Shown piece after piece: positions 31,887 to 42,575 of a stretch of 64,000 bases of DNA. The DNA comes from Desulfosoma sp. (GTDB lineage: Bacteria > Desulfobacterota > Syntrophobacteria > Syntrophobacterales > DSM-9756). Each line of letters begins with the position of its first letter. Within the stretch, counting starts at the first letter, position 1. Below the pieces are notes generated by a model. The model was not told the origin of the DNA, ran no database searches, and saw nothing but the letters and a program-made list of their open reading frames with translations. Position numbers and translations under genes: made by a program. The stretch is taken from contig JBBFKW010000003.1 of the NCBI GenBank assembly GCA_037481835.1, forward strand, positions 67,462-131,461, written 5' to 3'.

Positions 31887-32004
31887 GAGGCTGTCCGAGA
31901 ATGGCATATTCCTGGGAGCGCGGGCGTCTCGCCCGCTTCTCGTGCGGGCCGGAGGCCCGCGCTCCCAGGAGAAGAGGCCTTCGGGTTCGTTCTCAGACAG
32001 CCTC
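31887..32004. mobile_element. 118-bp MITE, family B copy 1
   Basis: TIRs GAGGCTGTCCGAGAA / TTCTCAGACAGCCTC, flanked by CTAG and CCAG; 3 mismatches to the copy at 42458. Confidence 0.85.
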
Positions 32005-32173
32005 CCAGGATGGACTCCGGCGGCTTCAAAACCTCATGAAACCGCCGCAGGGGGGCTCCGGAGGGTTGAAGCATCGTTTATGCGGCCGAGGAGGGCTTCA
32101 CCCTGCCTTGCGAAAGAGCTCGGGGCGGCGGATGCCGGGGCGGGCGCGGAGCCGACGCACAAGGGAGAAGGGG

Positions 32174-33151
32174 ATGGGAGATCGTTACTGCATCGGGATC
32201 GATATCGGCGGAACTTACATCAAGATGGGGCTTTTCGACGCGGAAGGCGGACGGCATGCCTTTGACCGCACGCCCTCCAACGCCGCCGGGCCCCCCGAGG
32301 CCCTGCTCGAAGCCCTCATCCGGGCATGCCGGGGCCTCATGGGAAAGGCCCGACTTCAATCCGGCCGCGTTGTCGCCGTGGGCTTGGGTGTGGCGGGCAA
32401 GCTGGATACCAGTGCAGGCCGCGTGGTTTTTTCTCCGAACCTTCCCAACATGTCCGGGTTTCCCCTGACCCCAAGGCTCCAAGAGGCTCTCCAGATTCCC
32501 GTTTTCATGGAAAACGACGCCAACGTGTTCGGCCTTGGAGAAGCCTGGGTCGGCCAAGGCCGAAAGATGCCCAATTGGATCGGGGTCACTTTGGGCACGG
32601 GAGTCGGCGGCTGCCTCATCGCCGACGGGGCGCTCTGGGTGGGGGACCGTTTGGGTTTTGCCGGCGAAATCGGCCACATGATCGTGGATCCGTCGGGGCC
32701 GCCGTGCGCCTGCGGCCAAACCGGCTGCCTGGAAGCCCATGCCTCGGGATCGGCCCTCATCCGGGGCATGGCCCATGCCTTGAACGCCGGGGAGCCGATC
32801 CCGGAGCGGATTGCGGACGCTCTGCGCACGGGATCCCTCACACCCGAAGATGTCTACCGGGCCGCGGATTCCGGAGACCCCATCGCGCGACGCCTGTTCC
32901 GGCGCATGGGATGGGCTTTGGGGCTGGCCCTGGCGAACCTTTTCACGTTTCTCGGCATTGAGTCGGCCGTTATCGGAGGCGGGGTGAGCCAATCCTGGGA
33001 TCAATTCCATCCCCACATGATGGAAACCCTTCGGACCGTTCCCAAGATGCTCGACCCCGACGGCATCCACATCTTTCGGACCGGACTCGGGCCCCTGGCG
33101 CCCTTGTACGGCGCGGCGCGCTTGGCTTGGACGGCCCTGGATCAGTCCTAA
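32174..33151 (+). CDS. ROK family sugar kinase (glucokinase-like)
   Basis: IGIDIGGT, ENDAN, LGTGVGG, GEIGH, CACGQTGCLEAHASG, IGGGVS. Confidence 0.9.
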   Translation: MGDRYCIGIDIGGTYIKMGLFDAEGGRHAFDRTPSNAAGPPEALLEALIRACRGLMGKARLQSGRVVAVGLGVAGKLDTSAGRVVFSPNLPNMSGFPLTPRLQEALQIPVFMENDANVFGLGEAWVGQGRKMPNWIGVTLGTGVGGCLIADGALWVGDRLGFAGEIGHMIVDPSGPPCACGQTGCLEAHASGSALIRGMAHALNAGEPIPERIADALRTGSLTPEDVYRAADSGDPIARRLFRRMGWALGLALANLFTFLGIESAVIGGGVSQSWDQFHPHMMETLRTVPKMLDPDGIHIFRTGLGPLAPLYGAARLAWTALDQS

Positions 33152-34143
33152 CCGCCGATGGAGGTCATGGGGCGGGAGACGCACTTGCGGCGCGGAAGAG
33201 ATCCCTCGTTCAGGCGGTGTTTTTCCGGTTTCGATTGGATGGCTTGAAGGATGAGGCGGGCGATGTCCGCATCGGACGCCCCGTTTCGCAAAAGGCGCCG
33301 CAAATCCACATCGCGCTCGGCGAAAAGGCAGGTCCTCAAGGATCCCTCCGCCGTGATCCGCAGCCGATTGCACGTCGGGCAGAAATGATGGCTCATGGGA
33401 CTTATGAGGCCGATCTTTCCCGGCGCTCCAGGAAACTGATAATAGCGCGCGGGGCCGTTGCCGTTGTGCGAACTGCAGGGGATGATCGGTCCGACGGAGG
33501 CGATTTTCTCCATGACGAGATCCGAGGGCAGATAGCGTTCTTTGTAAGAATCCGGCCGGAAGGGCATGAGTTCGATAAAGCGCACATGAAAGGGATAGGC
33601 CAGGGTCAGTCGAGCCAGGGCTTCGATTTCGTCCTCGTTGACTCCCTTCATGGCGACGACGTTGATCTTTACGGGAGAAAATCCCCGATCCAGCGCCGCG
33701 CAGAGGCCCCGCCACACCGCATCGAAAGCGTCGACTCCGGTGATGGCGGCATATTTTCGGGGCTGCAGGGTATCCAGGCTCACATTGATGCGCCGAATCC
33801 CCGCATCCCAAAGGTCCTTGGCCATGCATTCCAAGAGCAGCCCGTTGGTGGTCACACTGACGTCGTCCACCCCTGAAACGGCGCACAGGCGCTTCAAAAA
33901 GGACACGATGCCCTTGCGCACGAAGGGCTCCCCGCCGGTCACCCGCACTTTACGGATGCCGAGCCCCGTCGTGATGCGCACGAGACGCAGGAGTTCCTCG
34001 TAACGCAGGATGGCTTCATGGGGCAGAAACTGGAAGCCCCCGGCCGGCATGCAGTAGGTGCAGCGCAGATTGCACCGGTCGGTGACGGAAAGCCTCAGGT
34101 AATCCACTTGCCGCTGATAGCCGTCTACGAGCCCTTGGGCCAT
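33148..34143 (-). CDS. moaA: GTP 3',8-cyclase (molybdopterin biosynthesis radical SAM)
   Basis: [32 protein letters not shown]-terminal IGG. Start at 34143 preferred. Confidence 0.95.
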
Positions 34144-34194
34144 GGCACGCCGTCCTTGCGCCTTGGGATTTTCCCGCACGGACACTTTGTGCCT

Positions 34195-34223
34195 TTTTAA
34201 GATCCGCCCCATCGTTATGTCAA
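34195..34223 (-). promoter_or_regulatory. Putative sigma70 promoter of moaA
   Basis: Minus strand TTGACA-17 nt-TTAAAA. Confidence 0.5.
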
Positions 34224-39958: not shown

Positions 39959-39960
39959 CC

Positions 39961-41142
39961 ATGTCCATGAGCCGGTTTTTGTTCACTTCCGAATCGGTTA
40001 CCGAAGGCCATCCCGACAAGGTGGCGGATCGGATTTCCGATTCCATTCTGGATGCCATCATCGCCGAAGACAAGGGGGCCCGGGTGGCGTGCGAAACGCT
40101 GGTGACCACCGGTTTGGCCTTCATCGCCGGGGAAATCACCACCTCCGCGTGGGTGGACATGCCGCAAATCGTGCGGGAATGTATCCGCGATATCGGCTAC
40201 AACGACTCGTCCATGGGCTTCGACTGGGAGACCTGCGCGGTCATCTCCTCCATCGACAAGCAGTCGCCGGATATCGCCATGGGCGTTAACGAGGGTGAAG
40301 GGCTTTTCGACGAGCAGGGCGCCGGAGACCAGGGGCTCATGTTCGGCTTCGCCTGCACGGAAACCCCCGTGCTCATGCCCATGCCCATCTACTACGCCCA
40401 TCGCATCACCCGGAAGCTCGCCGAAGTGCGCAAGAACGGCATCCTGGGATGGCTTCGCCCGGACGGCAAGAGCCAGGTGACCATCGAATACATCGACCAC
40501 AAGCCCGTGCGGGTGGACACCGTGGTCGTGGCGGCCCAACACTCACCCGACGTGACCTACAAGACCATTCAGGAAGGGATCATCGAAGAAGTCATCAAAA
40601 AGGTCATCCCGGAAGAACTTCTCGATGAAAAGACCCGATATTTCATCAACAGCACCGGGCGGTTCGTCATCGGCGGTCCCATGGGCGATTGCGGCATGAC
40701 CGGCCGAAAGATCATCGTGGACACCTACGGCGGCCAGGGCAGCCACGGGGGCGGGTGTTTTTCCGGCAAGGACCCCAGCAAGGTGGATCGCAGCGCTTCC
40801 TACATGGCCCGCTACGTGGCCAAAAACATCGTGGCTGCCGGGTTGTGCGACCGCGTGGAAGTGCAGGTGGCCTACAGCATCGGGGTGGCCGAACCCGTCT
40901 CCCTCATGATCGACTCCCACGGCACGTCCAAGATCCCCCCGGACGAAATCGCCAAGATCGTCCGGGAAGTCTTCAGTTTCAAGCCCGCCAACATGATCCG
41001 TCACCTGAAGCTGCTGCGCCCCATCTACAAGAAGACGTCCTGTTACGGGCACTTCGGGCGCAACGACCCGGATTTCACCTGGGAAAAGACGGACATGGTG
41101 GACGTGCTGGTGGAACGGGCGGGCCGATTCGGCGCGTCCTGA
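39961..41142 (+). CDS. metK: S-adenosylmethionine synthetase
   Basis: [49 protein letters not shown]. Confidence 0.98.
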
Positions 41143-41200
41143 AAAAGGACCCATGGCGGCGGCTCATCAGAGGGCGCCCTGCGGACATCGAGGAGAATTC

Positions 41201-42457
41201 ATGGACAATCATGTGAAAGATGCCTCTCTTGCGGAAAAAGGACGGTTGCGGATCGAATGGGCGGCCCGCTCCATGCCCGTGCTGCGTTCCATCCGAGAAC
41301 GCTTCGCCAAGGAAAAGCCTCTTGAGGGCCTTCGGATTTCGGCGTGCCTTCATGTGACCACCGAAACGGCGGCTTTGGCCCAAACCCTCAAAGCCGGCGG
41401 CGCCGATGTGCGGCTGTGCGCCTCCAACCCCTTGAGCACCCAGGACGATGTGGCCGCATCCCTGGTGGTCCACGACGGCATCGCTGTCTTCGCCATCAAG
41501 GGGGAGGATACGGACACCTATTACACCCACATCCACCAGGCGTTGGCGCATGGGCCCCAGATCACCATGGACGACGGCGCCGACCTGGTGAGCACCCTCC
41601 ATGCGGACAAGAAAGACCTCCTTACCGGCATTCTCGGGGGTACGGAAGAGACCACAACGGGGGTCATTCGGCTGCGCAGTATGGCGGATCAAGGGGTCCT
41701 TCGCTATCCCATCATCGCCGTCAATGACGCCAAGACCAAGCACCTGTTCGATAACCGCTACGGCACGGGACAGAGCACCATCGACGGGATCATCCGAGCG
41801 ACCAATAGACTTCTGGCAGGATCCACGTTCGTGGTGAGCGGATACGGCTGGTGCGGGCGCGGTGTGGCCATGAGGGCGGCGGGCATGGGAGCCAAGGTCG
41901 TCATTACGGAAGTGGATCCGCTGCGGGCCCTGGAAGCCGTCATGGACGGCTATCAGGTGATGCCCATGGATCAAGCCGCCCGTATCGGGGACTTCTTCTG
42001 CACCCTTACCGGAGACATTCACGTCATCCGCAAGGAACATTTCCAGGTCATGAAGGACGGCGCCATCGTGGCCAATTCGGGTCACTTCAACGTGGAACTG
42101 GACCTGGAGGCCTTGGAGGCCATGGCCGTGGCCAAACGGTCGGTGCGGGACTTCGTGGACGAGTACCGCCTGCCCGACGGCCGATGCCTTTACGTGCTCG
42201 GCGAAGGGCGGCTTGTCAACCTGGCCGCGGCGGAAGGACACCCGTCCAGCGTGATGGACATGAGTTTTGCCAACCAGGCGCTGTGCGTGGAACACCTGGC
42301 CAAGCACGCCAAGAGCCTGGAAAACAAGGTCTACGGTGTTCCCGAAGCCATCGACCGGGAAATCGCCCAGCTCAAACTGGCCAGCATGGGGGTGGCCATC
42401 GACCGCTTGACGGAAGAACAGGAAAAATACCTCCATTCTTGGGAAATGGGGACCTAG
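41201..42457 (+). CDS. ahcY: Adenosylhomocysteinase
   Basis: [57 protein letters not shown]. Confidence 0.98.
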
Positions 42458-42575
42458 GAGCCTGTCCGAGAATGGCATCTTCCTGGGAGCGCGGGCGTCT
42501 CGCCCGCTTCTCGTGCGGGCCGGAGGCCCGCGCTCCCAGGAGAAGAGGCCTTCGGGTTCGTTCTCAGATAGCCTC
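42458..42575. mobile_element. 118-bp MITE, family B copy 2, inserted at the ahcY stop codon
   Basis: CTAG at 42454-42457 and 42576-42579 flanks TIRs GAGCCTGTCCGAGAA / TTCTCAGATAGCCTC. Confidence 0.9.

Follow-up and report, generated by a model that had tools for sequence, protein, structure and literature searches.

Structure and family of the 118-bp element

The DNA analysed here is a 64,000-nucleotide stretch (the window) of a 3.63-Mb draft genome of Desulfosoma sp., which consists of 38 contigs with 60% G+C and is called G000 below. [quoted passage not shown] Aligned over 118 bp, the copies at 31887-32004 and 42458-42575 differ at three places, element positions 4, 23 and 112. Both are bounded by 15-bp terminal inverted repeats (TIRs) with the consensus GAGSYTGTCCGAGAA, the arms of copy 1 having one mismatch. 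Copy 1 is flanked by CTAG and CCAG, and copy 2 by CTAG on both sides. The initial annotation, made from the window alone, had described two 118-bp copies with three differences, 15-bp TIRs and a CTAG duplication that is perfect in copy 2, and the alignment confirmed each of these points. The left CTAG of copy 2 supplies the stop codon of ahcY, the S-adenosylhomocysteine hydrolase gene. The features of the two copies are listed below; IS stands for insertion sequence.

31883-31886, no strand: left target-site copy CTAG of MITE copy 1; the right counterpart, CCAG, has one mismatch
31887-32004, plus strand: MITE copy 1, subfamily A, 118 bp; left TIR 31887-31901, right TIR 31990-32004; ends match those of an IS1182-family element
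31910-31970, no strand: 61-bp core of copy 1, two inverted hairpin units (GGGAGC tail, 7-bp stem, 3-nt loop) with the 7-nt spacer TTCTCGT; also free-standing, without TIRs, in genome G229
32005-32008, no strand: right target-site copy of MITE copy 1, CCAG, degenerate
42454-42457, no strand: left target-site copy CTAG of MITE copy 2; ahcY (41153-42457) ends with the TAG at 42455-42457
42458-42575, plus strand: MITE copy 2, subfamily A, 118 bp; left TIR 42458-42472, core doublet 42481-42541, right TIR 42561-42575
42576-42579, no strand: right target-site copy CTAG of MITE copy 2

The inner palindrome of copy 1 is formed by arms at 31910-31936 and 31944-31970, each of 27 nt, which are 89% complementary. 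Their outer 16 nt pair perfectly and each arm holds a hairpin of its own, with a 7-bp stem and a 3-nt loop, in agreement with the 16-bp inner inverted repeat with a small hairpin in each arm that had been noticed at the outset. When folded, the whole 118-bp element forms a single hairpin at -47.8 kcal/mol; the z-score is -9.45, and 200 shuffled sequences were all less stable. No U-tract follows this hairpin on either strand in the two window copies. An Rfam scan of 30500-44500 with E-values up to 1 returned nothing relevant, the sub-threshold, miRNA-like matches lying only on a neighbouring hairpin of the repetitive extragenic palindromic (REP) type.

Pairing of TIRs across the G000 contigs gave 44 TIR-bounded elements of 92-119 bp, 21 of them 118 bp long and 18 of them 99 bp. 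Subfamily A, to which the window copies belong, has a mean pairwise identity of 95.8% over 19 aligned copies, with values up to 100%. Subfamily B has the left part and the palindrome of subfamily A, combined with a different loop and right linker. Subfamily C has the TIRs and the CTAG duplications of subfamily A and is 99 bp long, without the GC-rich palindrome. One of its members lies close to the second window copy.

43856-43954, plus strand: subfamily C MITE of 99 bp, a sister form; TIRs and CTAG duplications shared, GC-rich doublet lacking; 18 copies of 99 bp in the genome

A MITE consisting of the shell without the core would be about 57 bp long. No TIR pair at such a spacing was found in G000, nor among the sites listed for two genomes of the sister genus Desulfacinum (G005 and G008).

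The flanks of the 44 elements are mostly CTAG. Duplicated off-consensus targets were also seen (CTTG, ATAG, CTCT, CTGG, CCAG and CGAG), and because these too are duplicated the flanks must be true target-site duplications. Several of the MITEs stand in tandem and share one CTAG. The elements thus combine TIRs and small size with a lack of coding capacity, 118 bp being too short to encode a transposase, and they show target-site duplications at many dispersed copies, non-canonical targets included. The DDE-type MITE proposed in the initial annotation is supported by these results, the 4-bp YTAG target duplications being real.

The tetranucleotide CTAG occurs at 988 sites in G000, compared with approximately 13,000 estimated from base composition by our own calculation. 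An open frame of at least 100 codons is closed by 49% of the 988 sites, and 19 of the 44 MITEs are placed in this way. Stop-codon targeting as a special property of the MITEs was ruled out, since their proportion matches that of the CTAG background; many of them lie exactly on stop codons because the rare CTAG targets lie there. Up to 88 of the 988 sites belong to target duplications of the MITEs, ie two per element and fewer where tandem copies share one. In the window, ahcY and mltA both end in TAG within MITE target duplications (42454-42457 and 43852-43958).

An IS1182-family partner and the movement of the element

The full 118-bp element was found at 84-90% identity in the two Desulfacinum genomes, each with about 100 TIR pairs. 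Contig C1 of G005, 1754 bp long, encodes a 506-amino-acid protein with DUF772, DDE_Tnp_1 and DDE_Tnp_1_6 domains. This transposase scored 433.8 bits against the IS1182-family model NF033551 of NCBIfam, for which the cut-off is 270. The best of the IS5 models, NF033581, gave 62.4 bits with a cut-off of 140, and the other IS5 models scored lower still. The IS5-type assignment of the initial annotation was therefore not upheld, and the partner is a member of the IS1182 family.

The right end of the contig reads TTCTCGGACAGCCTC followed by CT. The left end was obtained from contig-end junctions, where CTAG is followed by GAGCTTGTCCGAGAA, 96 bp upstream of the start codon. Taken together, the two ends give a reconstructed length of about 1775 bp for the IS. 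An exact-pattern scan of public genomes found eight left junctions, five in Desulfacinum infernum DSM 9756 and three in Desulfacinum sp. MAG-79, and CTAG directly precedes the left end at all eight. The ends of the IS are identical to the TIRs of the MITE, and the similarity between the two is limited to these 15 bp, which makes the element a type II MITE by the definition given in PMC10969869.

The length of the IS and its direct repeats, judged from the CTAG at all eight left junctions, are typical of the IS1182 family, in which ISPse1 of Paracoccus has 1653 bp and a 4-bp direct repeat (PMC3281130). MITEs have been assigned to ISMac2, an IS1182-family element of Methanosarcina acetivorans (PMC3852290). 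IS1182-family elements with 4-bp direct repeats, and MITEs related to them, are thus already on record. The present system agrees with them in its TIRs of 15-16 bp, its 4-bp direct repeats and a transposase that passes the IS1182 model, and the MITE, like those described before, is short, non-coding and present in many copies. It differs in that the partner is not in the assembled genome, in that only the 15-bp ends are common to MITE and IS, and in that a second repeat family, copied in full, makes up the core.

The initial annotation had proposed a search for the autonomous IS with the same ends; as described, one was found in Desulfacinum, and none was found in this assembly. Three PF01609 matches in G000 were considered as candidates (an IS4-like contig, C38, and two broken genes), and none of them has the TIRs. 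A PF13340 search of G000 gave no match.

Movement of the MITE may be pictured as follows. An IS1182-family DDE transposase would bind the GAGSYTGTCCGAGAA ends and move the element in trans, inserting it at YTAG (mostly CTAG) with duplication of 4 bp, and the doublet inside would be copied passively at each transposition of the shell. Judged from sequence, a transposase of the Desulfacinum type is the probable mobilising enzyme, and the G000 copies would now be stranded, as the IS is missing from the assembly.

That the doublet-bearing MITE moves as a TIR-bounded unit is shown by a site that is filled in one Desulfacinum genome and unfilled in another. In G008 (contig C7) a single 215-bp MITE is followed by TTAG and the flank. 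At the same site in G005 (contig C36) there is that MITE and two further MITEs in tandem, one of them doublet-bearing, each bounded by a copy of YTRG. The flanks of the two sites are 92-97% identical, and the difference is an insertion polymorphism of the MITE.

A second orthologous site in the same two genomes (G005:C61:5340-5869 and G008:C27, locus L015 1420-1659) is occupied by different IS1182-type MITEs, a 141-bp element without the doublet in one case and a 118-bp element with it in the other, the right junction being common to both. It was rejected as an empty site because two different MITEs are present. One target may have been used repeatedly, or the core may have been replaced; the occurrence of different MITEs with the same ends at one site points to re-use of scarce targets.

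The 61-bp core as a separate repeat

The core occupies element positions 24-84 and consists of two inverted units of about 27 nt, each with a YCYGGGAGC tail, a 7-bp stem and a 3-nt loop, separated by a 7-nt spacer. Exact TIR sites and 23-nt units were counted across genomes, with the following results.

G000 (this genome): 90 exact TIR sites, 47 units
G002: 22 exact TIR sites, 19 units
G005 (Desulfacinum): 205 exact TIR sites, 23 units
G008 (Desulfacinum): 194 exact TIR sites, 50 units
G006: 38 exact TIR sites, 21 units
G007 (third Desulfacinum): 80 exact TIR sites, 1 unit
G004 (related genome): 0 exact TIR sites, 175 units
G229 (another family of the same phylum; complete, 4.2 Mb): 0 exact TIR sites, 71 units

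TIRs and hairpin units dissociate across these genomes, and the core is an independent module. In G229 there are at least 10 free 61-bp doublets laid out as the MITE core is (unit, 7-nt spacer, inverted unit), which by eye are about 90% identical. Each is sharply bounded, lies in unique sequence and lacks TIRs, the starts of the two units being offset by 30, and approximately 50 single units occur elsewhere in that genome. Among the 401 genomes of the phylum that were sampled, G229 is the only one outside the home family in which the unit is present in high copy number. The unit was also found in other surroundings. A different MITE of G004, about 110 bp long and with ends of its own, has one unit at its centre, and in G006 a doublet with a 25-nt spacer lies inside a third repeat, while single units occur there in mosaic arrays together with other REP-like motifs. 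Among the IS1182-type shells, three different linkers accompany this same doublet, whose boundaries fall at the same positions. The 7-bp stem has at least six compensatory variants, changed on both sides, so that the small hairpin appears to be maintained.

Element positions 24-84 are not decayed IS sequence, then, but a complete copy of a separate 61-bp repeat. The initial annotation had taken the core for a repeat of another class, and the occurrence of doublets and single units without these TIRs, in related and in unrelated genomes, supports it in this. We consider the element as a whole likely to be a type II MITE of the IS1182 type, its core being a full copy of a hairpin-doublet repeat that exists independently. 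The doublet may have entered a pre-existing shell, rather than the shell forming around the doublet.

Several observations weigh against this interpretation. With the Desulfacinum transposase as query, no match, neither a transposase nor a remnant, was obtained in the 38-contig G000 draft, where an IS may have been left unassembled, or in three congeners, yet copies in G000 are up to 100% identical. The doublets of G000 are nearly all inside TIRs, 21 of 23 having both and the other two having one, and the independence of the core rests for this reason on other genomes. A doublet never seen outside the TIRs had been named at the outset as an observation that would refute capture; G000 by itself comes close to it, and only the other genomes lead away from it. 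Finally, no clean CTAG empty site was found for either window copy in the three congeners. The MITE at the ahcY intergenic site is not present in any of them, and the ahcY spacer of one (G003) is 92 bp long, compared with 91 bp expected (213 - 122) if the element were removed from G000. The congeners are only about 84% identical, however, and their intergenic DNA has diverged; their ahcY genes end in TGA or TAA, and with these stops and a diverged spacer the site does not qualify as a clean empty one. Of the comparison of occupied and empty sites suggested initially, the part that succeeded is the filled and unfilled pair in Desulfacinum.

The doublet might alternatively be a working part of the element, which we regard as unlikely, though less so than the other two alternatives. 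The hairpin would unite the TIRs and raise transposition, or it would be kept by the host as a stabiliser or terminator of RNA 3' ends, and either function would explain the dominance of the doublet-bearing subfamily. The stable fold of the whole element into one hairpin, the compensatory stem variants and the frequent position of copies directly after stop codons are all consistent with a function, as is the low variation of the doublet in subfamily A, 0.8% per site as opposed to 4.6-7.0% in the TIRs. Much of the TIR variation, however, is a fixed difference between left and right IS ends at positions 4-5, and the placement at stop codons fits the CTAG background. The missing U-tract speaks against this reading as well, and the doublet-less 99-bp subfamily is about as abundant as the 118-bp one (18 and 21 copies).

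It is improbable that the doublet arose inside an IS1182-type MITE without any capture, the free units and doublets being MITE fragments that have lost their ends. The close association with TIRs in G000 would be accounted for, and a few TIR-less doublets in G000 and G005, which have diverged, could be decayed MITEs. Such an origin does not accommodate the 71 units of G229, with their single copies and sharply bounded doublets in unique flanks, or the 175 units of G004, as both genomes are devoid of exact TIR sites. Nor does it fit the third Desulfacinum genome, where 80 TIR sites are accompanied by a single unit, or the presence of the unit inside two shells with unrelated ends.

Relation to REP sequences

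Single units and inverted doublets of a hairpin, as found in G229, are the arrangement expected of REPs and of REPINs, the inverted REP doublets that form hairpins. The unit tail, YCYGGGAGC, contains no GTAG, and CGTC was seen in a single variant, at the apex of the hairpin and not terminally. REPs are mobilised by the REP-associated tyrosine transposases (RAYTs), which are Y1 enzymes. Among the 12 Y1-transposase loci examined in the family, none has the unit on both flanks, and the IS200-type TnpA loci of G004 and G006 have no unit. The REPIN-like cargo of the initial annotation is thus retained as a description of architecture, two inverted hairpin units, and not as an assignment to the GTAG-tagged, RAYT-associated class.

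That a RAYT moves the element as a true REPIN, its likeness to IS ends being incidental, is very improbable. In favour of this are the REPIN-like geometry of the core, the RAYT-like gene of G000 (contig C8) and one such gene in G008 that adjoins a doublet MITE. Against it, insertion of the element duplicates 4 bp of target, and its 15-bp ends are the same as the ends of a DDE insertion sequence; the unit lacks the GTAG tag; the G000 gene has a different REP, of the GTAG type (GTAGGTTGGGGTGAGCG-type), on either flank and no GGGAGC unit; the unit flanks none of the 12 Y1 loci on both sides; and G229 has no PF01797 match despite its 71 units.

The G000 gene encodes a RAYT-like Y1 protein of 214 amino acids (G000:C8:140803-141447; locus L109 1363-2007, minus strand; PF01797, 26.8 bits). 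Its locus looks like a classical REPtron, and its REPs are also present in the window. The G008 gene (contig C36; locus L108 1378-1884) encodes a RAYT-like protein of 168 amino acids, with the HUH motif reading H-I-R, ie the second histidine is lost, and lies about 47 bp from a doublet-bearing MITE. This proximity is probably a coincidence, because there is no unit on the other flank of the gene. Two features of the window near copy 1 belong in this context.

30801-30892, no strand: GTAG-type REP doublet of G000, given for contrast; of the class that flanks its RAYT gene
30955-30969, plus strand: isolated TIR-like 15-mer GAGCTTGTCCGAGAA, part of a mosaic repeat some 475 bp long (30725-31199)

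The mosaic repeat has five near-identical and several diverged copies in the genome. It contains the GTAG-type REP doublet and two hairpin units of the form CATGAAAGTC...GACTTTCATG, one of which follows the solo TIR-like 15-mer, of the IS1182 type, and it also holds a second REP pair, of the GTAGGAGC type, at 31081-31132.

In G004 the unit and the doublet were also found within a long open frame (G004:C274:9600-10100, locus L024; also L023 and L025), which is kept open by the inserted sequence (AGSAGVSPA and PGSAAVPAAKDAGGTPALPG). The frame may be that of a DUF1156-type DNA methylase. These in-frame, intragenic insertions of the GGGAGC hairpin resemble the Rickettsia palindromic elements.

The repeat resembles the REPs and REPINs that RAYTs mobilise (Bertels and Rainey 2011, PMC3116915; Nunvar et al. 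2010, PMC2817692) in its hairpin units, which are short and GC-rich and have a conserved tail that is single-stranded, in occurring both singly and as inverted doublets whose spacer is short, and in its dispersed, lineage-restricted distribution. It differs from them in its tail, GGGAGC in place of GTAG, in having no associated RAYT, and in that its movement in G000 takes place only within a DDE-type MITE. With the CGTC-tagged REPs and the Rickettsia palindromic elements (Di Nocera et al. 2013, PMC3733652) it has in common that it is a palindromic class without a dedicated transposase and, with the latter, that a unit can lie in frame within a gene, as in G004; unlike the CGTC-tagged REPs, it has no CGTC at either end of the unit. 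The nesting of one small repeat class in another, or their combination, is known from a minisatellite-carrying MITE of Porphyromonas gingivalis (PMC4596501) and from the modular mosaics of BIMEs and BOX elements. In the present case, by contrast, the nested module is a palindrome of REPIN-like form, and several MITE shells unrelated to one another contain it in different genera. The REP modules treated in the TIME paper (PMC4133298) are those of plasmids and not palindromes.

More tentatively, the GGGAGC-tailed hairpin of about 27 nt and its 61-bp doublet could represent an undescribed REP/REPIN-like class, a suggestion we put forward as possible rather than probable. Such a class would lack both tags, GTAG and CGTC, as well as a RAYT, would spread by a mechanism of its own and could sit in frame in genes. 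It would have moved repeatedly into MITE shells unrelated to each other (two besides the IS1182 type), gaining DDE-driven mobility in this way and outliving its own mobilising system.

The origin of the core of a type II MITE is usually unknown, and here the core can be named as a complete copy of a second repeat family. Shell and core are separable genome by genome, which provides a concrete case of the modular assembly of non-autonomous elements. Genes of G000 often owe their stop codons to these MITEs, so the annotation of gene ends and of intergenic structures in this genome should take them into account. A RAYT-less palindromic repeat that occurs in at least two families of the phylum may be a new REP-like class, the spread of which would need a mechanism.

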